Positions 6,321 through 45,510 are shown, numbered from the stretch's first letter. The stretch is 45,539 nucleotides of DNA from Rikenellaceae bacterium (GCA_044433545.1 JAWXTO010000001.1:1-45539), one strand, 5' to 3'. Notes: generated by a model from the letters alone, not told the origin. Translations and numbers: made by a program.

Positions 6321-7052
6321 TTGAATATTTTTTCGACCATAAAGATACTGTTTTTTCCTGAAATATGTATATGTTGCGGAAGAAAACTTCTAAAATCTGA
6401 ACATTCGTTGTGTGTTCACTGTCTTGTTAATCTCCCAATGTCAAGGGATTGGCTTGTAAAAGAGAACGATACGTTTATAAAAATCTGTGACCGCACTATA
6501 ATAGAAAACGCCTGTGCCGTGTTTGAATATCGCAAAGAAAATGACTATTCTAGGATGATTCACAAGCTTAAATTCAGTTATGAGAAGAAGGCGTTGTTTG
6601 ATTTAGGAAGTTTTATAGGGAATAAACTCTATGATGAAACGCATTGGCTAGCCGACATAGACCTTATTATCCCTGTGCCTTTACACAAATTTCGCAAATT
6701 AAAACGTGGGTACAATCAATCCGAAGAATTTAGTCGTGGTTTGAACGAAACTTTTGGCAAAGAAATAGATTCTACATCCATAATTAGAAGCAAATATCGC
6801 AAAGCACAGGTGAAAACCAGCAGTTTTGAAGAAAGATGGACGAATGCTGAAAACTTGTTTAGTGTTGTTGATAAAGAAAACCTTGAAGGCAAACATATAC
6901 TTATAGTTGACGATGTTATAACCACTGGCGCAACTGTGATTTCTTTGATAGAGGCGATAAAAGAGAGTGTTTCTGATGTTAAAATTTATGTTTTGGCGTT
7001 AAGTTCTACAAAAAAAGTTGTTAAGACAATAGCCACGGGGACAGAATACTAA
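6321..7052 (+). CDS. comF: ComF family phosphoribosyltransferase-domain protein (TTG start)
   Basis: N-terminal Cys pairs (CICCGRKL, CVHC) and the PRTase motif ILIVDDVITTGAT. Confidence 0.8.
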   Translation: MNIFSTIKILFFPEICICCGRKLLKSEHSLCVHCLVNLPMSRDWLVKENDTFIKICDRTIIENACAVFEYRKENDYSRMIHKLKFSYEKKALFDLGSFIGNKLYDETHWLADIDLIIPVPLHKFRKLKRGYNQSEEFSRGLNETFGKEIDSTSIIRSKYRKAQVKTSSFEERWTNAENLFSVVDKENLEGKHILIVDDVITTGATVISLIEAIKESVSDVKIYVLALSSTKKVVKTIATGTEY

Positions 7053-7244
7053 AGATTCAGGGGACTTATAATTATTTTGTGGTTTAGTGCTAGCGAAAAT
7101 CCAAATAAAATTCGTACCTTTGTACAGTGTTTTGTGTGTGTTGCAGGATACTGTGAAATACACGCTAAAAAACTATCTACCGTTTATATGTTTAGGGGAT
7201 TTCTAATAATTCCCTAAAATACTTTTCCAAAATTTCTCACTCTC

Positions 7245-25933: not shown

Positions 25934-27700
25934 TTATTTGTTGTACGTTGCTATACCACCACGTTGGCTATCAACAGTGATACTATATTTAGAATCACCA
26001 CTTATTATCCACCTTACAGTTACATAAGAATTGCCTGAAATGTTATCAACTATAAGTTTTTCAGGGTTGTTCTTTTGCTCTTTATAATTTCCGAAAATTT
26101 GCTCTCTTGTTGTGCCTAATTTAGGGTCTGTAACTATCATTCCTGCAACTACATTTGCTCCCTCTAACTTAATCCAATCTGGTCTTGAAATTTTGTTTTT
26201 TAAATCCCAGTCAGAATGTGTTGGCATCAAACGACTGTTAGAAATCACAGCAGTAACCTCTTTTAATCCACCACCTAAAGCCTTTTCTGTAACAGAATCA
26301 ACAGAAAGTTTAGGAGTGTGATAACAGTGTAGGATAGTAAATGCCATGTTTCTGTGAGCTGCTGACTCTAACAAGAAGCCAGGATGTATTCTGCTAAAGT
26401 TTTTCTTAACGCCACCCACTTCAATAGTGCCAAATTGAGGGTGCTCAACCTCTTTCCAATCGACCATACCATCATTGAACAACAACAATTTGTCAAATTC
26501 ATATTGTTGGTCTGAAGCGTCGCCCTTATATTGACCATTAAACATGTCAAATTTGCTATATAACTCATTGCAGTACGTAAACATGCCCATACCTAAGCCC
26601 ATGTAGTCAATGTCGCTACCAACAGTTGTGTATAAGTCTTCATAAATAACATATTGTTTATATCCAGGAATCATTTCTTCACCTTTAGAGGCGATATAGT
26701 TATAAACTGCCATGTCGTTTTTGTTTACGCTTTTAGCATCGTCAATAGCACCAGGAGGCGTTAGAATCATACCACCCGAATTGTGATAAGTTTGACCTGC
26801 GCCAATGTTAGGATGTGCGTGTAAGAAGTCAACGATGTTTCTGTTCTCTACAATCGACATAGGGTATTTATAAGAACCTCCTTGAAGATAGTTTGGCTCC
26901 CAACCATACCCAAAGTTTCTGTTTGGGTCATATCCACCGATGCCATCTTCATTGATTTTGCCATCGCCATCATTATCAAAACCTTCATAACCTAAGATTT
27001 CGTATTCGCCTTTCTGGTCTGGAGCGACTTCAATCATCTTTCTTGAATCTTTAGGGTCTTCAATATAGCGACCATTGCTGCTTTTACGTCTCATTTGAAC
27101 GATATTCCCATCATTGTCAAAGTCGTCATAACCGTCTTCATCAATGTAGCCATCTCTGTCAATATCAATAGGAATCATACCAGCTCTAGGCGAGTGAGGA
27201 GTGTTCGCTCCATACATAAAATACTCTCTAGCATCAGGATTAATTGTTGGAACTATATAAAATGTTTTGTCTTTTAACAACTCTTGGATAAATTCGTTAG
27301 AGGCGTGCATTTCTGTTAAATACCAAGCTGTGTATAATGCCATTGTTGTTGCTTGAATCTCATTTGAGTGGATGTTTGCAAAAATCATCATACCAGGTTT
27401 TTGATCAGGGTCACCGCTTTTAGAATCTGAGATTGTCAATCCCCACATTTCGTTGCCTTCATAAGATTTACCTATAGAATAAACCTTTGCAAGGTCAGGA
27501 TATGCAGCAGCAATTTCTTTACATAAAGCCTCAATTTGGTTTAAATTTCGGTAATAATTCCAAGTAGCTTTAACTTTAGGGTTGGCAGGGCTGCCCGATG
27601 CCGCAAAAAATTCATTAATTGGCAGTCTTTTCTGTGCATCAGCATAATTAACTGCAAATACACCACATATCGTAATAAGTAATAGTAACTTTTTCATCAT
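25934..27700 (-). CDS. M14 family zinc carboxypeptidase (secreted)
   Basis: Signal peptide, canonical HSNE (HxxE) zinc motif, a later YHNSGG His, and D-x-D-x-DG-type acidic inserts. Confidence 0.9.
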   Translation of the reverse strand: MMKKLLLLITICGVFAVNYADAQKRLPINEFFAASGSPANPKVKATWNYYRNLNQIEALCKEIAAAYPDLAKVYSIGKSYEGNEMWGLTISDSKSGDPDQKPGMMIFANIHSNEIQATTMALYTAWYLTEMHASNEFIQELLKDKTFYIVPTINPDAREYFMYGANTPHSPRAGMIPIDIDRDGYIDEDGYDDFDNDGNIVQMRRKSSNGRYIEDPKDSRKMIEVAPDQKGEYEILGYEGFDNDGDGKINEDGIGGYDPNRNFGYGWEPNYLQGGSYKYPMSIVENRNIVDFLHAHPNIGAGQTYHNSGGMILTPPGAIDDAKSVNKNDMAVYNYIASKGEEMIPGYKQYVIYEDLYTTVGSDIDYMGLGMGMFTYCNELYSKFDMFNGQYKGDASDQQYEFDKLLLFNDGMVDWKEVEHPQFGTIEVGGVKKNFSRIHPGFLLESAAHRNMAFTILHCYHTPKLSVDSVTEKALGGGLKEVTAVISNSRLMPTHSDWDLKNKISRPDWIKLEGANVVAGMIVTDPKLGTTREQIFGNYKEQKNNPEKLIVDNISGNSYVTVRWIISGDSKYSITVDSQRGGIATYNK

Positions 27701-27709
27701 AATTAGGGT

Positions 27710-29335
27710 TTAAAGAGTTATAATTTCTGATACATATCCACTTTGAGGACAACCTGCTTCCATTTCAAACTTGCCTTTACCTTGAATTAGCCAGCTGAAC
27801 TCTTCGGCTTGACCAGCATCTAAAGAAGGGATAGTAAGAATTCTATTTCCTTGAATTAAAGTCTGATTGTCAAGCTTTAATTCAATTCTAACATATTTCG
27901 TAAAGTAAGATTGAAGACCTATAGCAGTTGCAGTAGACATTTGACCTTCGTTTACAATTTTTGCGCTTATTCTATATACTCCCTTGCCAATTTCTTCACT
28001 TTTTACAGTTAGTTTTAAAGAAGGTTTCAATTCAATAATTTCAGCTACAGTTTTGATTGCAGCGTCAATTTGTGTTTCGATAAGGTTTAGAGGGGGAGTA
28101 AACATCACATAAGGTTTTAGTGAGCCTACTTCAACGTTTTCGCCTTTAAAGTCAGGGTGCTCAATAACAGTCCAGTCTACAGCACAGTCTGTTATGCTGT
28201 TTTTGTCTGCCCATTTCAAGAATGCGGCTTCTCGGCTGTCTCTACAGCAGTCTTTTTCGTCTATACTCCAAACTGTTGTGCCAAAACTATTTCTTCCATA
28301 GTGATAATATGCCCATTCTAAGAAGTTGCCATCTAATGTAGGTTCAGCCATAATGTTATTAGCTGTAGTGTCGTTCGCTTGATAAATTTCACTTACTTTT
28401 TTCGCTAATAAGTTGTCTCCATCAAAACAAAATTTGCTAGCATTGCTATCTTTTGGTGCATCTACAGCTTTTCTTGTTTTGTAAACATAAGCTTTAGGTT
28501 CACACATGTTTTCGTTAGTTCCAAAAGTCACCACAGTGTGAATATTGAAAGCGTCATACATAAAATCTAGTAGTGCTCTATTCTCTACCTCAGAAACGGC
28601 ATAATTTCCGCTCTCAGGTTTCCAGTTTTTATATCCAAAAGTGAAGTTTCTGTTTAAGTTTACGCCATCTTCACCGTCTTCATTAATTAGACCGTCACCA
28701 TCATTGTCTATGCCCTCAGTAAATAGCTTATAAACGCCCTTTTCTCCTTTTGAAGGGTCTGCTTTAATGACTATTCTTGAATCACCAGGGTGTTTAATGT
28801 ATTCGCCACCTTCGGTTTCGACAATCATAGCCGTAATTAATCCGTTGCCATCTAAGTCGTCAACGCCATCTTCACTCATAAGTCCATCTCTATCGTTATC
28901 ATATAAAGATTTTGTCCTTGCGCACTCATACTGCACTTTAGCAAAGTAGTTTTCTGTAGCATCAGGGTTCACACACGGAAATACATATACCGTGTTTTCA
29001 GCTAGAAATTCGTTAGCGTCTGCTCTAGATAAAAATCCTTCGACAAGTCTCACAGAACTTTCAATTCCGACAAAGTGGCGAGCATCGACACCAGCTACAA
29101 CAGCAACAGCAGGGTGGTTTGCGACATCGCCTTTGCCAAGTGTCACGACCCATACATCATTAGAAGAAGGAGTTTTGGCAATAGATTCCATTTTTGCCAT
29201 TTCAGGATATTTGCTTACGATTTTAGATAAGCGATCCTTTATCTCTTTAGGTGTTGAATATTCACTTTGAGCAAATAGAGTGCTTGATGTGAACATCCCT
29301 ACACAAAAAAGTAGATAGGTAGTAATCTTTTTCAT
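27710..29335 (-). CDS. M14-like paralog with a non-canonical first zinc motif (DARH in place of HxxE)
   Basis: Signal peptide. Collinear with the upstream paralog, including the DNDGDG.INEDG inserts and the NRNF segment. Confidence 0.85.
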   Translation of the reverse strand: MKKITTYLLFCVGMFTSSTLFAQSEYSTPKEIKDRLSKIVSKYPEMAKMESIAKTPSSNDVWVVTLGKGDVANHPAVAVVAGVDARHFVGIESSVRLVEGFLSRADANEFLAENTVYVFPCVNPDATENYFAKVQYECARTKSLYDNDRDGLMSEDGVDDLDGNGLITAMIVETEGGEYIKHPGDSRIVIKADPSKGEKGVYKLFTEGIDNDGDGLINEDGEDGVNLNRNFTFGYKNWKPESGNYAVSEVENRALLDFMYDAFNIHTVVTFGTNENMCEPKAYVYKTRKAVDAPKDSNASKFCFDGDNLLAKKVSEIYQANDTTANNIMAEPTLDGNFLEWAYYHYGRNSFGTTVWSIDEKDCCRDSREAAFLKWADKNSITDCAVDWTVIEHPDFKGENVEVGSLKPYVMFTPPLNLIETQIDAAIKTVAEIIELKPSLKLTVKSEEIGKGVYRISAKIVNEGQMSTATAIGLQSYFTKYVRIELKLDNQTLIQGNRILTIPSLDAGQAEEFSWLIQGKGKFEMEAGCPQSGYVSEIITL

Positions 29336-41248: not shown

Positions 41249-41323
41249 GGGAGCATAGCTCAGTTGGTTCAGAGCATCTGCCTTACAAGCAGAGGGTCAT
41301 AGGTTCGAATCCTATTGTTCCCA
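41249..41323 (+). tRNA. tRNA-Val (anticodon TAC)
   Basis: Acceptor stem GGGAGCA/TGTTCCC, D-loop AGCTCAGTTGG, anticodon loop CTTACAA, T-loop GGTTCGAATCC, discriminator A. No encoded CCA. Confidence 0.95.
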
Positions 41324-41330
41324 CTTTAGA

Positions 41331-41360
41331 AAAGCAGCTACCAAAAGTAGTTGCTTTTTT
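41331..41360 (+). terminator. intrinsic terminator after tRNA-Val
   Basis: AAAGCAGCTAC / GTAGTTGCTTT stem followed by a T-run. Confidence 0.7.
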
Positions 41361-41382
41361 GTTTTATGTTATTTGTTAATTT

Positions 41383-42183
41383 ATGAATCAATTTAGAACA
41401 CCACCAATTGTTAAAGGGTTACTTATAATAAATATAGTAGTCTTTGGTCTTCAGTCGTTGCTTCCTAATGGAATGGGCGACGTTATTACAGAATATTTAG
41501 GGTTGCATTATTTTGGCTCTCCGTTATTCTATGTATATCAGTTTTTTACACATATTTTCTTGCACGGAAGTTTTATGCATCTATTTTCAAACATGTTTGC
41601 ATTATGGATGTTTGGTCGCCTTTTAGAATATGAAATTGGCAGTAGACGTTTCTTAATTTACTATACAATTTGTGGAATCGGGGCAGCTATACTACACAGC
41701 GGCATCGTGGCTTTAGAGATTTCGGCGATACAGGATAATGTGTCAGCCTTTTTAGCAAACCCTACGCCTGAGTTATTTGACGCCTTAGTTATTGACAACT
41801 TCAAGGGAGCTGTCGTACATGAAGATTTCCTAAATAATTGGTATGACATGCCTCAAAATGCAGAATACATCAAATCTGCAATGTATGCAGCAAATAAATT
41901 GTTGTCAACTAGCATTAACACAGTTACTTTAGGTGCTTCAGGGGCTATATTTGGCATACTTCTAGCCTTTGGAATGATGCATCCTAATGACAGAATTATG
42001 TTGCTTATTCCGCCAATTCCTATGAAAGCTAAATATTTTGTAATGGGATACGCTTTACTTGAACTATATCTAGGTTTATCAGATTCAACCAGCAATATAG
42101 CCCATTTTGCTCACCTTGGAGGTATGATTTTTGGATTTTTCATCCTAAGATATTGGAAAAGAACAGGGAGGATTTATTATTAG
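41383..42183 (+). CDS. rhomboid family intramembrane serine protease
   Basis: HIFLHGSFMHLFSNM (HxxxN) and GASGAIFG motifs, with a catalytic His region near the C-terminus (AHLGG). Confidence 0.9.
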   Translation: MNQFRTPPIVKGLLIINIVVFGLQSLLPNGMGDVITEYLGLHYFGSPLFYVYQFFTHIFLHGSFMHLFSNMFALWMFGRLLEYEIGSRRFLIYYTICGIGAAILHSGIVALEISAIQDNVSAFLANPTPELFDALVIDNFKGAVVHEDFLNNWYDMPQNAEYIKSAMYAANKLLSTSINTVTLGASGAIFGILLAFGMMHPNDRIMLLIPPIPMKAKYFVMGYALLELYLGLSDSTSNIAHFAHLGGMIFGFFILRYWKRTGRIYY

Positions 42184-42257
42184 TATAATTTTCAATAAAA
42201 TCACCTAATTTAGACATAATCAACACATAACAAAATTTCAAGTGTCGAGCTTTAATA

Positions 42258-42293
42258 AAAACGCCTTTACAGCATGTTGTAGAGGCGTTTTTT
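42258..42293 (+). terminator. intrinsic terminator after the rhomboid gene
   Basis: AAAACGCCTTTAC / GTAGAGGCGTTTT stem followed by a T-run. Confidence 0.75.
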
Positions 42294-42362
42294 GTGTCTA
42301 AGAAGTTAGTGATTCTAAAAAATCGTTACGGACATTCTTGCAATTTATCCAAATGCGATTTC

Positions 42363-42370
42363 TACATTTG
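42363..42370 (+). promoter_or_regulatory. candidate -7 box TACATTTG heading the accessory module
   Basis: Exact TAnnTTTG match, 90 nt upstream of the small ORF. I noticed no other exact box between here and 45329. Confidence 0.45.
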
Positions 42371-42459
42371 TGCAAAGGCAAGAAAATCATAAAGTCCTAG
42401 GTAATAGTTTTTTCTTGCATGAAAACAAAATATTTATTAACTTTAAAAACTAAATTGAT

Positions 42460-42642
42460 ATGAAACGACAACTAAGGTTAGATTTCAATCCGCTGCCAAA
42501 GCGCAGTTATGATTTAAATCTTTATAGCTCTTACCCATGTTCTATTATGGGCAAAAAGAGAGAACACGCACCAACATGGCACTGTTTTGTTGTGTTTGAT
42601 GACGAAATTTCACTAGTAATTACTAATTTTTTATCTAAATAG
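42460..42642 (+). CDS. orphan 60-aa ORF (coding status uncertain)
   Basis: ATG-initiated and basic at the N-terminus (MKRQLRLDFNPLPKR). No recognisable motif. Confidence 0.35.
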   Translation: MKRQLRLDFNPLPKRSYDLNLYSSYPCSIMGKKREHAPTWHCFVVFDDEISLVITNFLSK

Positions 42643-42693
42643 AACGGCTGTGAATGTTATTGTAAAGAAATATTAGAAAATGACATATATGAA

Positions 42694-42700
42694 AAGGAGG
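42694..42700 (+). promoter_or_regulatory. canonical Shine-Dalgarno AAGGAGG
   Basis: Lies 6 nt upstream of the ATG at 42707. The other gene starts I inspected in this window lack any such element. Confidence 0.5.
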
Positions 42701-42706
42701 TAAGTG

Positions 42707-43537
42707 ATGTTTTGGAATAAAAAAAATAAAAATGACGATAGCGAAAACCAAAATTACGAATATAAATTTCGTCGTAATGGTTCAATAATCCAAAAACCGA
42801 CCGACTCAGATTATAGTTATGCTAAAATAAAAAGCAATCCAGCACTAAAAGGATTAAAAGGCGTTGATGATTACAGTGAATTTACTAGTAAGGATAAGAA
42901 GAATAATTTAATTTATAAATTTAACGATAGTAGTAATATCACAGATTTTAACTTTTCAGACAACCCCAACAAAGAGAAGAGGGCTGCAAAACGAGCCGAA
43001 AAAGGCAGAAATCGCAGAGGTACAGCGTTTACAATTAATGACGACAAAGTAGCTGACGAACTTTACAGAGCAGTCGCTGGAAACTCAGATGTGGAGTATA
43101 TGAAAGTTGGGTATAGACAAAATGAAGATTCAGAGGAGCAAAACCTAATTAAAACAGATAAAAGTCCTACAATGGTGAAACCTAAAGACCTTGGAGCACT
43201 ACACGTAGCTGGAAAAGAAATCATTGATGTGACTCATAGTCACCCATTTAACCCCAATGGTATATTTGCAACAAAATTTGCTTCAGAAGAAGACACGCTT
43301 GACTATCTGAATACTTACAATAATTTTCACACAGATTATAAAGTTAGCAACAGAAATTACAACATGCCTAAACACAATGTTTATCATCCTTGGACATCAG
43401 ATATTAACAATCTTCCACATACAATGGAATATAACCATAAAGGTACAATTTTATTAAACGAAATGACTTTAGACGATACAAAAGAGATGTATTATAAAAA
43501 ATTAAAGGAAGAAGCAGGAATTGAAATTAAAAGATAA
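42707..43537 (+). CDS. standalone JAB/MPN-like (JAMM-type, DUF4329-like) putative metallopeptidase with an N/K/D-rich N-terminal region
   Basis: VEYMKVGY (candidate Glu) then DVTHSHPFNPNGIFATKFASEEDTLDY, giving E...HxH...SxxD. No signal peptide. The ORF-track start is GTG at 42704. Confidence 0.8.
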   Translation: MFWNKKNKNDDSENQNYEYKFRRNGSIIQKPTDSDYSYAKIKSNPALKGLKGVDDYSEFTSKDKKNNLIYKFNDSSNITDFNFSDNPNKEKRAAKRAEKGRNRRGTAFTINDDKVADELYRAVAGNSDVEYMKVGYRQNEDSEEQNLIKTDKSPTMVKPKDLGALHVAGKEIIDVTHSHPFNPNGIFATKFASEEDTLDYLNTYNNFHTDYKVSNRNYNMPKHNVYHPWTSDINNLPHTMEYNHKGTILLNEMTLDDTKEMYYKKLKEEAGIEIKR

Positions 43538-43594
43538 CAGTTCTTGTTGTATAAAGCCAAATCAATGTAACTTGAATTTAATACAAAATAACAG

Positions 43595-44095
43595 ATGAAG
43601 CAAATTGTCACATTTACACTATTAATCTCATTCATTTTAGGTTGTGCCTCTCAACACAATCTGCAAATTAATGAAAAAGACCTTACAACAAACATAGAAA
43701 GTGATTCAATAATAATTAGAGGAAGGGTTATTGAAGAAAAAAGCCGTCAAAAAACTAAAAACATTACACCAATAGAGGGCGTAATATTTGCTTTCTTAGA
43801 TTTAAGGTATAAGGATGAGTTAATAAAAGACCCTCTTTTCTATCAAAAAGATTCTACCGTTCATATCCCTGCAAGCAATTACGCTGTTTCAGATAAAAAC
43901 GGATATTTTAACCTTAAATTAGAGAAAAATAAATATGTCACAAAATCTATCTATATTGGTTATGACAATGCTATAATAGACATTATCCCTGTGGAACAAG
44001 AGATTGATTTAGGTGAAATTGAATTAAAAGCAACAATTATTGATGACAGTGATGACTTTATGAAAGTTCGCAATTCACGTAAATCAATGAAATAA
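43595..44095 (+). CDS. lipoprotein, carboxypeptidase-regulatory-like beta-sandwich pattern (paralog 1)
   Basis: Lipobox ILGC, then IIIRGRVIEE...SDKNGYFNLKLEKNKY...IYIGY. Confidence 0.8.
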   Translation: MKQIVTFTLLISFILGCASQHNLQINEKDLTTNIESDSIIIRGRVIEEKSRQKTKNITPIEGVIFAFLDLRYKDELIKDPLFYQKDSTVHIPASNYAVSDKNGYFNLKLEKNKYVTKSIYIGYDNAIIDIIPVEQEIDLGEIELKATIIDDSDDFMKVRNSRKSMK

Positions 44096-44176
44096 TTCAA
44101 AAATCTAACAGTGCAAGAAATCTTATCTAAAACAAGTTCTACATATAAGTTGTAAGCATGTATAAAATCTTAAATC

Positions 44177-44887
44177 ATGAAGCATATCCTATTCCTCATT
44201 ATAACTTTTACTATTTCATGTAAAGTTTTTGCACAGAACAATGATTCTGTATTTTTAAAAGGCAGAGTTGTTCTTTTTGAAACAAAAGAAGCATCGGCTA
44301 GTTTTGTAGCATTTTATAAAGATTTGGAATTAGGGTTAAACACAAAGTTATCTCATGCAGAAATAGATGATTCATTAGTCGTTGCGCTTTTAAACACAGA
44401 CAAGAATGGCGATTTTAAGATAAAATTACCTAAAGGTGATTATATAATGAGAATTTTCTCAGCCATTTCGCTAGACATAACGCAAAAAGTATCTCTTAAA
44501 GACAGCATTGTAGACTTAGGCATCTATGACCCTTTCTCTTCAAGTTATTATCTTGATGAAGCACCTGCGATGACTGCACTTAGACGACGAGTTTACAATA
44601 GAATTATGATGTATCGTCAAAATGGCAACCCAACAAAATTTAATGTAATTAGTGAAGAAGAAGTCAAATGTGACACCACAAAATTAACAGTAGTCTACGA
44701 AGATTTTAACAGCGATTCAGACATAAAAGCATATTACACTTCTGGGCTTGTAGTTTTTAAAGAAGAGTCTAATGGCAACAGGCAAGATTCACGAAAAAAG
44801 ATGCAGAAATACATAACAAAAATGACTAAAAAATATTCAAAACTTGAAAAGGCTCATTTTAAAGAGGCAGTGCTTAAAGAAAAATAA
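44177..44887 (+). CDS. secreted protein, carboxypeptidase-regulatory-like pattern plus a basic C-terminal extension (paralog 2)
   Basis: Signal peptide ...KVFAQ, then FLKGRVVLFE...TDKNGDFKIKLPKGDYIM. Confidence 0.8.
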   Translation: MKHILFLIITFTISCKVFAQNNDSVFLKGRVVLFETKEASASFVAFYKDLELGLNTKLSHAEIDDSLVVALLNTDKNGDFKIKLPKGDYIMRIFSAISLDITQKVSLKDSIVDLGIYDPFSSSYYLDEAPAMTALRRRVYNRIMMYRQNGNPTKFNVISEEEVKCDTTKLTVVYEDFNSDSDIKAYYTSGLVVFKEESNGNRQDSRKKMQKYITKMTKKYSKLEKAHFKEAVLKEK

Positions 44888-44894
44888 TACATAT

Positions 44895-45329
44895 ATGAAC
44901 AAAATAACATTATTATTAGTAATGCTGCTGATTTCAAGCAATGTAGCAGGTCAAAATTTATCAAATAAATATATACAGCGTAAAGACACAAAAGGCTTTC
45001 TCCATATAACAGGGAGGCTTTTGTCTTATGGAGATAAAGCTGATAGCACCTATGAAAAAGGGGCAACTATTTTGGCGTATAAGTTAAACAGCAAGAAAGG
45101 AACAACTAGCAACAGTCCTACGTTTATGGGGTACACAGATGATAACGGTTTATTTGACATCTGTTTGTCTAAAGGATTTTATTTAATCATTTTTGAAGGT
45201 GAATCATCAAGTGTTTTGTATAAGAAAATAAGGCTACGCAAAAAATCAATAGAATTAGAAGATGCGAAATTAGAAGGTTATATTGTTACGGTTAGTTTCT
45301 GTGGGCAAAATAGCAAACCAGTGCTTTAA
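44895..45329 (+). CDS. secreted protein, carboxypeptidase-regulatory-like pattern (paralog 3)
   Basis: The ATG at 44895 gives the signal peptide MNKITLLLVMLLISSNVAGQ, then HITGRLLSYG...TDDNGLFDICLSKGFYLI. Confidence 0.75.
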   Translation: MNKITLLLVMLLISSNVAGQNLSNKYIQRKDTKGFLHITGRLLSYGDKADSTYEKGATILAYKLNSKKGTTSNSPTFMGYTDDNGLFDICLSKGFYLIIFEGESSSVLYKKIRLRKKSIELEDAKLEGYIVTVSFCGQNSKPVL

Positions 45330-45332
45330 TAT

Positions 45333-45380
45333 GGGTGATACCCGAAAAAAGAAGATAAAAAATTAGACATTAAATAAAAT
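45333..45380 (+). repeat. dispersed repeat family C, partial copy C2
   Basis: GGGTGATACCCGAAAA...TTAGACATTAAATAAA resembles C1, GGGTGATGCCCAAAA..CTAAGACATTTAAATAAA. No right-hand arm is present. Confidence 0.5.
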
Positions 45381-45386
45381 TTTATA

Positions 45387-45421
45387 GGGAGATTTCCAAA
45401 ACCTCGTTTTGTGGATTCCCC
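45387..45421. repeat. dispersed palindromic repeat family A, copy A3
   Basis: GGGAGATTTCCAAAAC-CTC-GTTTTGTGGATTCCCC. The right arm is 15/16 identical to the reverse complement of the A2 left arm. Confidence 0.6.
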
Positions 45422-45470
45422 TAATAATTTTCTATGAAAATTATACGCTCTTTTGCCCTTAAAGGCAAAA

Positions 45471-45510
45471 GAAAGCGAGTTTTGAAGCCCTCTGGGCGTA
45501 CTTTTTCAAA
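45471..45510 (+). repeat. probable degenerate copy of repeat family B (B3)
   Basis: GAAAGCGAGTTTTGAAGCCCTCTGGGCGTACT resembles AAGGCGAGTTTTGGGGC in B2 and GCAGCGTACT in the reverse complement of B1. It lies near the window edge. Confidence 0.4.

Follow-up and report, generated by a model that had tools for sequence, protein, structure and literature searches.

A free-standing Tox-JAB-1 gene with a small upstream partner and three exported paralogs in a Rikenellaceae contig: a candidate polymorphic-toxin cassette without RHS

The five-gene module and its products

The analysed stretch of DNA (the window) is 45,539 nucleotides (nt) long and comes from a Rikenellaceae bacterium (GCA_044433545.1 JAWXTO010000001.1:1-45539). 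Near its right end it carries a module of five genes, in which the gene for a JAB-type protein is preceded by a small gene and followed by three genes for exported, mutually related proteins. The evidence was wholly computational and drew on approximately 10 loci, several of them from the same studies. An earlier description made from the DNA alone (the sequence-only reading) had placed five same-strand genes after the terminator of a rhomboid gene, and all five were found there. They are real, belong together and form a coherent cassette. The main features are given below in window coordinates (aa, amino acids; ORF, open reading frame; dG, free energy).

42257-42292, plus strand: rhomboid terminator, hairpin and U-run (dG -19.6 kcal/mol, z -5.4), left border of the variable region
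42363-42370, plus strand: Bacteroidota-type -7 promoter box TACATTTG, the sole intergenic TAnnTTTG
42460-42642, plus strand: small ORF, 60 aa, the front of an 86-codon gene at 42460-42720
42707-43537, plus strand: JAB protein, 276 aa, Tox-JAB-1, predicted toxin
43595-44095, plus strand: paralog 1, 166 aa, lipoprotein, candidate cognate immunity protein
44177-44887, plus strand: paralog 2, 236 aa, exported, candidate orphan immunity gene
44895-45329, plus strand: paralog 3, 144 aa, exported, candidate orphan immunity gene

The TACATTTG box and its flanks were conserved in contigs L005 and L006, relatives that were about 75% identical to the window. The claim of a single promoter box held for the intergenic sequence and gained from this conservation, but the TAnnTTTG motif itself was frequent (39 copies on the plus strand of the window) and occurred twice more within the module genes. 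The gaps between the ORFs of the module were 7 to 81 nt, and a consensus scan of the plus strand gave no convincing terminator inside the module, in agreement with the sequence-only reading. The start of paralog 3 was corrected by one codon, from 44892 to the ATG at 44895.

Judged by profile comparison, the 276-aa protein is a true Tox-JAB-1 member with an intact catalytic motif and without the usual RHS carrier. It matched Pfam Toxin-JAB1 (PF15659) at aa 108-182 with 28 bits against a curated cut-off of 21 bits (E=3e-6), and residues 51-230 of the JAB-family profile were aligned by hhalign with eleven RHS-borne Tox-JAB-1 C-termini (99.1% probability, E=6.8e-19). Its earlier assignment to the JAB-like domains of polymorphic toxins was supported by these matches. 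The label DUF4329-like was not, as no DUF4329 match was obtained at E<=1. DUF4329 is Tox-JAB-2, which is paired with Imm-NTF2-2 (PMC3482391); it shares with the window protein the JAB-fold toxin clade of polymorphic toxins, and differs, apart from the missing match, in its immunity protein, which has an NTF2 fold and is cytoplasmic, and in its taxonomic range.

The residues of the metal site, N126..E130 (43082-43096), H177-S-H179 (43235-43243) and S193/D196 (43283-43294), were all present. These NxxxE/HxH/S/D residues were invariant in full-length relatives, and the equivalent columns were invariant in the RHS-type members. The JAMM-type site had been recognised correctly in the sequence-only reading, but it lies mid-protein (aa 126-196) and not in the C-terminal region. 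The protein has its own start, confirmed by homologs (MF[WG]NKK), and no hydrophobic N-terminus, which agrees with the earlier statement that it has no signal peptide. No RHS motif was found in the 276 aa and the gene upstream is unrelated to RHS; the domain is indeed free-standing. The RHS "DPDG" end-of-core site fell at about residue 51 in the hhalign alignment, so the first 50 residues (pattern YEYKF..NG.I.QKPT..DY.Y...) are an extension specific to the free-standing family. The same alignment led us to drop the possibility that the whole 276-aa protein is RHS cargo starting right after DPDG.

In a low-confidence AlphaFold model of the JAB protein (pLDDT, predicted local distance difference test, 44), the order of strands and helices in the core fitted a JAB fold. 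The best Foldseek neighbours of this model were STAMBPL1, PfJAMM1, AMSH, Sst2 and RadC, all of them JAB/MPN proteins, but with E values of at least 9e-3. Profile searches against PDB sequences gave no significant match for the JAB family.

The three downstream proteins were correctly described before as secreted paralogs with a carboxypeptidase-regulatory-like pattern: all have N-terminal signal sequences and the motif GR[VL]...D.NG.F...L.KG.Y. Paralog 1 has a lipobox (ILGC, Cys17), and as the lipobox Cys is its only Cys, it has no YxC motif; paralogs 2 and 3 have VFA|Q and VAG|Q sites, respectively. A CarboxypepD_reg-like beta-sandwich is predicted for paralog 1 and, together with an extra C-terminal region, for paralog 2, and paralog 3 (GRL...DDNGLF...L.KG.Y) was found as an identical protein on Logan contig L009. 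Pfam CarbopepD_reg_2 matched paralog 1 at E=2.8e-4, under the cut-off. Compared with PDB sequences, the exported family gave nothing significant, the N-terminal domain of a TonB-linked receptor being a weak match (E=0.15). Comparison of the five module products with NCBIfam, PADLOC and PHROGs yielded no useful match.

The nearest relative of paralog 1 was a 193-aa lipoprotein encoded after the JAB gene of L001 (41% identity). Paralog 2 was 64% identical to a 244-aa protein of L005, which directly follows a different variant of the C-terminal half (C-half) of the JAB protein. The exported proteins diverge faster than the predicted toxin. With the exported-family profile, a word-indexed search of 5.8 billion proteins returned only the window and L005-type members, and none was encoded away from a JAB gene.

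Relatives, block exchange and the small upstream gene

The free-standing JAB family is very rare. Four JAB relatives were obtained in the word-indexed search of 5.8 billion proteins and 24 proteins at E<=0.001 in an exhaustive HMMER search of 1.84 billion cluster representatives; about half of the 24 were short and free-standing, and the other half were C-termini of RHS toxins with the core end YDYGARxYDP...DPDG. Scans of 185,579 GTDB species representatives, JGI metagenomes and IMG/VR yielded no JAB relatives, and no JAB homologs were found by tblastn in 72,556 plasmids or 50,697 phages. The loci, those of the relatives being from metagenomes, had the following gene content.

Window: small ORF 60 aa (86 codons, cut by TAG); JAB protein 276 aa, intact; downstream, paralogs 1-3, exported and CarboxypepD_reg-like
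L001: small ORF 78 aa; JAB protein 296 aa; downstream, 193-aa lipoprotein, CarboxypepD_reg-like
L004: small ORF 97 aa; JAB protein 258 aa; downstream, 67-aa ORF, then an unrelated 330-aa lipoprotein
L005/L006: small ORF 86 aa; JAB gene frameshifted; downstream, 244-aa exported protein, CarboxypepD_reg-like
L007: small ORF 98 aa; JAB protein 281 aa; contig stops after it
L008: small ORF 97 aa; JAB gene cut by the contig end
L014: small ORF 97 aa; JAB protein 304 aa; downstream, 169-aa exported protein, CarboxypepD_reg-like
L015: small ORF 84 aa; JAB protein 269 aa; contig stops after it
L016/L017: small ORF partial, at the start of L017; JAB protein 258 aa; downstream, 146-aa exported CarboxypepD_reg-like protein (L016)
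L018: small ORF 81 aa; JAB protein 254 aa; downstream, start of a signal-peptide ORF with no family assigned

The small ORF is the most constant partner of the JAB protein, since a homolog lay directly upstream of the JAB gene in all 10 loci that had upstream sequence, mostly overlapping the JAB start. Of the six loci that extend far enough downstream, five had a CarboxypepD_reg-like exported protein next after JAB; the co-occurrence that the sequence-only reading had proposed to look for among homolog neighbourhoods was thus found. The contexts varied. The L001 copy lies in the cargo region of an element resembling a conjugative or mobilisable transposon (DUF3408, HTH_17, integrases, ISL3, PDDEXK_4, PLDc_2), and the L014 copy is chromosomal, between a BACON/LRR gene and RadC/HPPK/holB genes. 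As the contexts differ between loci, the module moves as a unit.

Further observations were made on these contigs. In L001 (4030-5373 and 7898-11027), the PDDEXK_4 protein has a 191-aa partner, the PLDc_2 protein is nuclease-like, and ISL3 and the integrases are present as fragments (one and two, respectively); some of these cargo genes may be defence genes. In L008 (6688-10802), the small ORF and the JAB gene stand at the very end of a 50.6-kb contig, beside a gene for a 772-aa SMEK_N/NB-ARC (STAND-type) protein; like the window, this contig breaks at the module. L014 also has a true RadC gene (6431-7099), 500 bp downstream of the module; its product is of another JAB fold family and shows no sequence relationship, and its proximity is probably coincidental chromosomal context. 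Positions ~1410-1442 of L018 translate to RSEEHTSELQ, the Illumina TruSeq adapter, and because this contig end is adapter contamination, the downstream ORF of L018 is not trustworthy. The JAB genes of L005 (~840-870) and L006, contigs from two runs, were split by a frameshift in an A6 run (GACAGAAAAAACAAAGGG); the gene may truly be inactivated or be subject to phase variation, or the contigs may have a sequencing error in common.

When the window was compared with L005 by blastn, identity was 74.7% over 42351-43098 and 77.8% over 44256-44882, with no match between. The unmatched segment is the exchanged block.

43099-44255, plus strand: JAB C-terminal (catalytic) half, paralog 1 and the 5' end of paralog 2

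The C-half of the predicted toxin and paralog 1 were exchanged as one block between conserved flanks, and the breakpoint lies inside the JAB domain, just past a highly conserved VADELYRAVAGNSDVEY segment. The N-terminal half (N-half; aa 1-131) of the window protein was 71% identical to that of L005, 61% to L015, 60% to L016 and 54% to L001, and for the C-half the identities were 56% with L001 and 39% with L005. L001 holds the nearest C-half and also the nearest relative of paralog 1. The L005-type C-half recurs in L019 (311-1085) as a 5'-truncated copy, which begins precisely at the conserved ...LYKLVAGNADVEY segment, is preceded by stop codons and stands before a paralog-2-like signal-peptide gene; this copy looks like an orphan toxin-end/immunity cassette. 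The hallmarks of polymorphic toxin-immunity systems (PMC3482391) are that a toxin end and the next gene travel together, that a partner gene is left behind and that a truncated orphan copy occurs. Because the exchange, the leftover partner and the orphan copy fit these hallmarks, paralog 1 was assigned as the putative cognate immunity protein and paralogs 2 and 3 as putative orphan immunity genes.

The small gene had been called an orphan ORF of 60 aa, a view that its constant place upstream of JAB and its true length contradict. It has 86 codons, of which an in-frame TAG at codon 61 (42640-42642) leaves a 60-aa product, and its natural stop (42718-42720) overlaps the JAB start. Codon 61 is AAA (Lys) in L005, and the translation beyond TAG, NGCECYCKEILENDIYEKEVSDVLE, matches the intact 86-aa homolog there. 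The conserved CECYC segment and the acidic tail can still be read in the 25 codons after TAG; differences to L005 were 7 synonymous and 7 non-synonymous in this part, and 12 and 22, respectively, in codons 1-60. Stop-codon reassignment was ruled out as the cause, as TAG ends 10 of the 37 core genes and is a normal stop in this genome. Given the normal use of TAG and the conservation of the codons behind it, the lesion would be recent, or else a sequencing error.

The family follows the approximate pattern.PLP.R.YD...Y..Y....K.RE....WHCF..FDDE......H.DCECYCK, then an acidic tail; H41, C42 and C64 are invariant, and most members have the full CECYC cluster. The small protein matched no Pfam, PADLOC or PHROG family, and neither a DNA-binding domain nor a known adaptor family nor a Pfam SSB match was found. 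Its profile matched only SSB proteins among PDB sequences (3pgz, E=0.0015; E=0.0038 with nine sequences). The SSB-like segment, "..RE...WHCF.VFDDE......YL.K", covers aa 31-61 (42550-42640), and the small protein, too, has an acidic tail. Kinship with SSB is unproven, as this match gained nothing from nine sequences and hhalign gave 2.5% probability against E. coli SSB. A low-confidence structure model had no structural neighbour. The small ORF lies in the conserved left flank common to the window and L005, and its identity between loci was not related to the identity of the JAB N-half (rho 0.04, 21 non-independent pairs). As to its role, the small protein may serve as an adaptor or chaperone, or may act as an inhibitor in the cytoplasm.

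Interpretation and competing explanations

With moderate confidence, we read the module as a horizontally acquired, RHS-less polymorphic-toxin cassette that would comprise a toxin, its cognate immunity lipoprotein, two orphan immunity paralogs and a small accessory partner. Among the options offered by the sequence-only reading, which also included a peptidase with substrate or adaptor proteins, an envelope toxin/immunity-like cassette is the one favoured by the evidence. The signs of acquisition are the lowest GC content on the contig, the breaks of three independent assemblies exactly at the left border, the L001 copy in the cargo of a mobile element and the relatives at other chromosomal sites.

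In such a cassette, one promoter would drive all five genes, the first of them for the small conserved cytoplasmic partner, here truncated by the nonsense codon. The free-standing Tox-JAB-1 zinc enzyme would be the toxin and the exported CarboxypepD_reg-like lipoprotein (paralog 1) its cognate immunity protein; paralogs 2 and 3 would be orphan immunity genes, either remnants from other variants of this toxin or acquired as protection against them. The toxin would be delivered to neighbouring cells and act in their periplasm or envelope, a site suggested by the export of the partners in both the free-standing and the classical RHS forms. The exported proteins probably protect their owner, and may neutralise the toxin by binding. 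The small protein and the 50-residue N-terminus could replace the RHS carrier as adaptor or chaperone; alternatively, the small protein might keep the enzyme inactive in the cytoplasm of the producer. The simplest chemistry would be that of a JAB isopeptidase acting on a peptide or isopeptide bond of the envelope. Toxin JABs have been proposed as possible nucleases, like RadC (PMC3482391), but a periplasmic or envelope site would fit a peptidase or isopeptidase better than a nuclease.

Several findings weigh against the favoured cassette. The exported proteins of the window had no detectable similarity to the classical lipoprotein of contig L010, described below (hhalign probability 1.6%), and no T6SS (type VI secretion system), RHS, PAAR, VgrG, Hcp or adaptor family was found by Pfam within 25 kb upstream (18 ORFs, 20.6-42.2 kb, and the five products). 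L004 carries different genes downstream of JAB. The CarboxypepD_reg assignment is sub-threshold: six of seven members matched PF13715 independently, each through the motif D.NG.F...L.KG.Y and the best at E=4.1e-5, and all were below the 32-bit cut-off. Both AlphaFold models, built on alignments of 4-5 sequences, were of low quality (pLDDT 44, for JAB with four sequences, and 59). Finally, the identity of the small ORF between loci tracked that of the JAB C-half (Spearman 0.65, 21 non-independent pairs), which would also fit a small-ORF antitoxin.

The last of these findings leads to an explanation that we regard as unlikely, namely that the small ORF and JAB form a toxin-antitoxin or abortive-infection addiction pair on mobile elements, in which the small protein, made first and translationally coupled, inhibits an intracellular JAB and the exported proteins are accessory or unrelated cargo. 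Besides that correlation (rho 0.65), the overlap between the small gene and the toxin start resembles that of type II toxin-antitoxin operons, and the small ORF and JAB pair was invariant in 10 of 10 loci while the downstream genes varied. Relatives adjoin defence-like genes (PDDEXK_4, PLDc_2 and integrases in L001; SMEK_N/NB-ARC in L008), and the conserved His and Cys residues (H41, C42, C64; CECYC) could bind the catalytic zinc. However, the small gene of the window is cut before the Cys cluster beside an intact JAB gene, which would be hard to tolerate for an essential antitoxin and is a mild argument against that role; the small proteins of the window and L005 are 66% identical, whereas their C-halves are only 39% identical. 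A pair of this kind would leave unexplained the strict co-occurrence of the exported family and its exchange with the C-half, and there were no PADLOC matches. The mobile setting, with the L001 copy just after the DUF3408 and HTH_17 genes of its element, could instead point to establishment or anti-defence proteins of conjugative elements, like the RadC-like JAB and SSB genes of plasmid leading regions, acting on recipient DNA. We consider this very unlikely. Toxin JABs have been suggested as RadC-like nucleases (PMC3482391), and the sole PDB sequence matches of the small protein were SSB segments (E=0.0015-0.0038), but this likeness is short, with an hhalign probability of 2.5% and no Pfam SSB match. 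The tblastn searches of the 72,556 plasmids and 50,697 phages returned no JAB homolog, the copies in the window and in L014 lie in chromosomal sequence where no transfer genes were seen close by, and the exported partners would be left without a role.

If the toxin role is set aside, the JAB protein could be a processing peptidase or regulator with the exported beta-sandwich proteins as its substrates or adaptors, that is, an envelope-protein maturation module and not a weapon. Processing of partner proteins at the C-terminus is common among prokaryotic JAB enzymes (PMC3482391), and the genes appear co-transcribed. We find this reading highly improbable: the JAB protein has no export signal while its putative substrates leave the cytoplasm via Sec, and block exchange and orphan copies are unexpected for an enzyme and its substrates. 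Moreover, the domain belongs to the toxin clade, whose JABs are without the residues of the ubiquitin-like (UBL) tail tunnel (PMC3482391). The lesions found in the family, namely the nonsense codon in the window's small gene, the A6 frameshift in JAB of L005/L006 and the truncated L019 copy, together with the extreme rarity of the family, would suit a decaying remnant without current function, its genes being mere neighbours. This, too, is improbable, as the JAB gene and the three exported genes are intact in the window with conserved motifs, the promoter box is conserved, and the 7 synonymous and 7 non-synonymous differences to L005 after TAG indicate a recent lesion.

Zhang et al. reported in 2012 that Tox-JAB-1 occurs only in Bacteroidetes, attached to RHS repeats, and is strictly paired with Imm65, the only lipoprotein immunity protein in their collection, which has a signal peptide, a lipobox and a YxC motif (PMC3482391). 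For this reason the pairing is not undescribed, as the sequence-only reading had supposed; no later work on Tox-JAB-1 or Imm65 was found in the literature searched. A classical form was found in L010 (Rikenellaceae metagenome-assembled genome, 1-5019) by a genome scan with a 3-sequence subset of the RHS-type alignment, and consists of an RHS C-terminal Tox-JAB-1 followed by a 185-aa lipoprotein. L010 as a whole carries, in an array, three orphan cassettes of RHS C-terminal toxins (Tox-JAB-1, Tox-MPTase3 and a third of unassigned family); each precedes a signal-peptide or lipobox protein, so that all three immunity candidates are exported. The window module shares with the Tox-JAB-1/Imm65 RHS systems the domain and its motif, the Bacteroidota setting, a next gene whose product has a signal peptide and a lipobox, and evidence both of orphan copies and of a toxin C-terminus exchanged along with its immunity gene. 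It differs in that it has no RHS or other carrier, has its own 50-residue N-terminal extension and a dedicated small gene upstream, its exported partner is CarboxypepD_reg-like, and its breakpoint lies inside the JAB domain and not at the RHS core/toxin junction. What is already described is Tox-JAB-1 paired with an exported immunity protein; what is new is the RHS-less form, the small partner and the exported immunity family.

Contact-dependent killing operons, such as those of T6SS cargo effectors, have an upstream chaperone gene, an effector and a periplasmic immunity protein. The module has the same order of a small accessory gene, an effector without signal peptide and an exported immunity gene; unlike them, it has no secretion-system gene in the window, and its small protein matches no known adaptor family. 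Arrays of orphan or acquired immunity genes are present in Bacteroidales. They resemble the module in having tandem paralogous immunity-like genes, some without a matching toxin variant, in a horizontally acquired segment, but the array of the module numbers only three genes, stands behind an intact toxin gene and lacks a recombinase as far as sequence is available. Polyimmunity loci were described by Zhang et al. (PMC3482391). With the RadC-like JABs of mobile elements, the module shares stand-alone JAB-fold proteins of ~200-300 aa on mobile DNA and RadC among the Foldseek matches; the Pfam family is different, and RadC proteins have no exported partners.

A bolder version of the RHS-less cassette, which we consider distinctly doubtful, is that Tox-JAB-1 in this form is a new envelope-directed weapon: as a JAB isopeptidase, it would enter the periplasm of neighbouring cells by means of the small H/C-rich partner and the 50-residue N-terminal tag and cleave its target there, and the exported proteins would be decoys that mimic its target. 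The target could then be the CarboxypepD_reg-like N-terminal extension of SusC-type TonB-dependent transporters, or a peptidoglycan cross-link or tether. PF13715 is a domain at the N-terminus of Bacteroidota TonB-dependent transporters, and as it is the best family match of the exported proteins, decoys would point to the substrate of the toxin.

Tox-JAB-1 has so far been known only from one computational survey of 2012, and the locus provides a minimal version for experiments, in which the enzyme has 276 aa and no RHS shell of 1,500 residues, the three candidate immunity proteins have ~150-240 aa and the partner has 86 aa. If the cassette is read correctly, polymorphic-toxin logic can do without a carrier protein and can operate when the breakpoint falls within the catalytic domain. 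Two families would be new with the locus, one of exported immunity proteins and one of small accessory proteins, but not the category of system.

Borders, composition and genomic setting

The module is bordered by the following features.

41383-42183: rhomboid gene (Pfam Rhomboid, E=1.7e-27)
45446-45478, strand not assigned: hairpin 117 nt past the last gene (dG -22.1 kcal/mol, z -2.7 for 45430-45500)

Three Logan contigs from different runs (L011, L012 and L013) were identical to the window over 41299-42292. All of them start in the 3' end of tRNA-Val and stop at the rhomboid terminator (42286-42292). These ends look like branch points of the assembly graph, which suggests that the sequence past the terminator varies between strains. 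Nucleotide homology of the window to L005 begins at ~42351.

At the right end, the hairpin at 45446-45478 was terminator-like on the minus strand in the scan, and may be the terminator of the module, or one shared with a convergent gene. Logan contig L009, which was 99.8% identical to the window over 44209-45461, stops inside this hairpin, at 45461. The window is a complete contig and ends 210 bp after the module.

The region had been described as more AT-rich than the flanking core genes, and its GC content bears this out (0.314 for 42294-45329, against a mean of 0.354, standard deviation 0.013 and minimum 0.325, for windows of the same size elsewhere on the contig, none of which was as low). 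Foreign codon usage was not supported: the codon usage of the module (KL, Kullback-Leibler, distances) and the GC content of third codon positions (GC3) were within the range of the core genes, for which reason the compositional signal is real but modest.

The genes of the window up to 42.2 kb are ordinary chromosomal ones and include PolA, Lgt, two M14 peptidases, TadA, AspRS, DHFR and ThyA, as well as a TP-methylase, YceG, tRNA-Val and the rhomboid protease, with a DUF5128/DUF4934 neighbour. Features consistent with Bacteroidota were the TAnnTTTG box and the DUF5128/DUF4934 neighbour in the window, BACON, sulfatase and DUF3408 in related contigs, and the Rikenellaceae genome with the classical form. 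The two Peptidase_M14 genes (588 and 541 aa) are adjacent, on the minus strand at 25934-29335. They are ordinary genes with no connection to the module, despite the "carboxypeptidase regulatory-like" name of the exported family.

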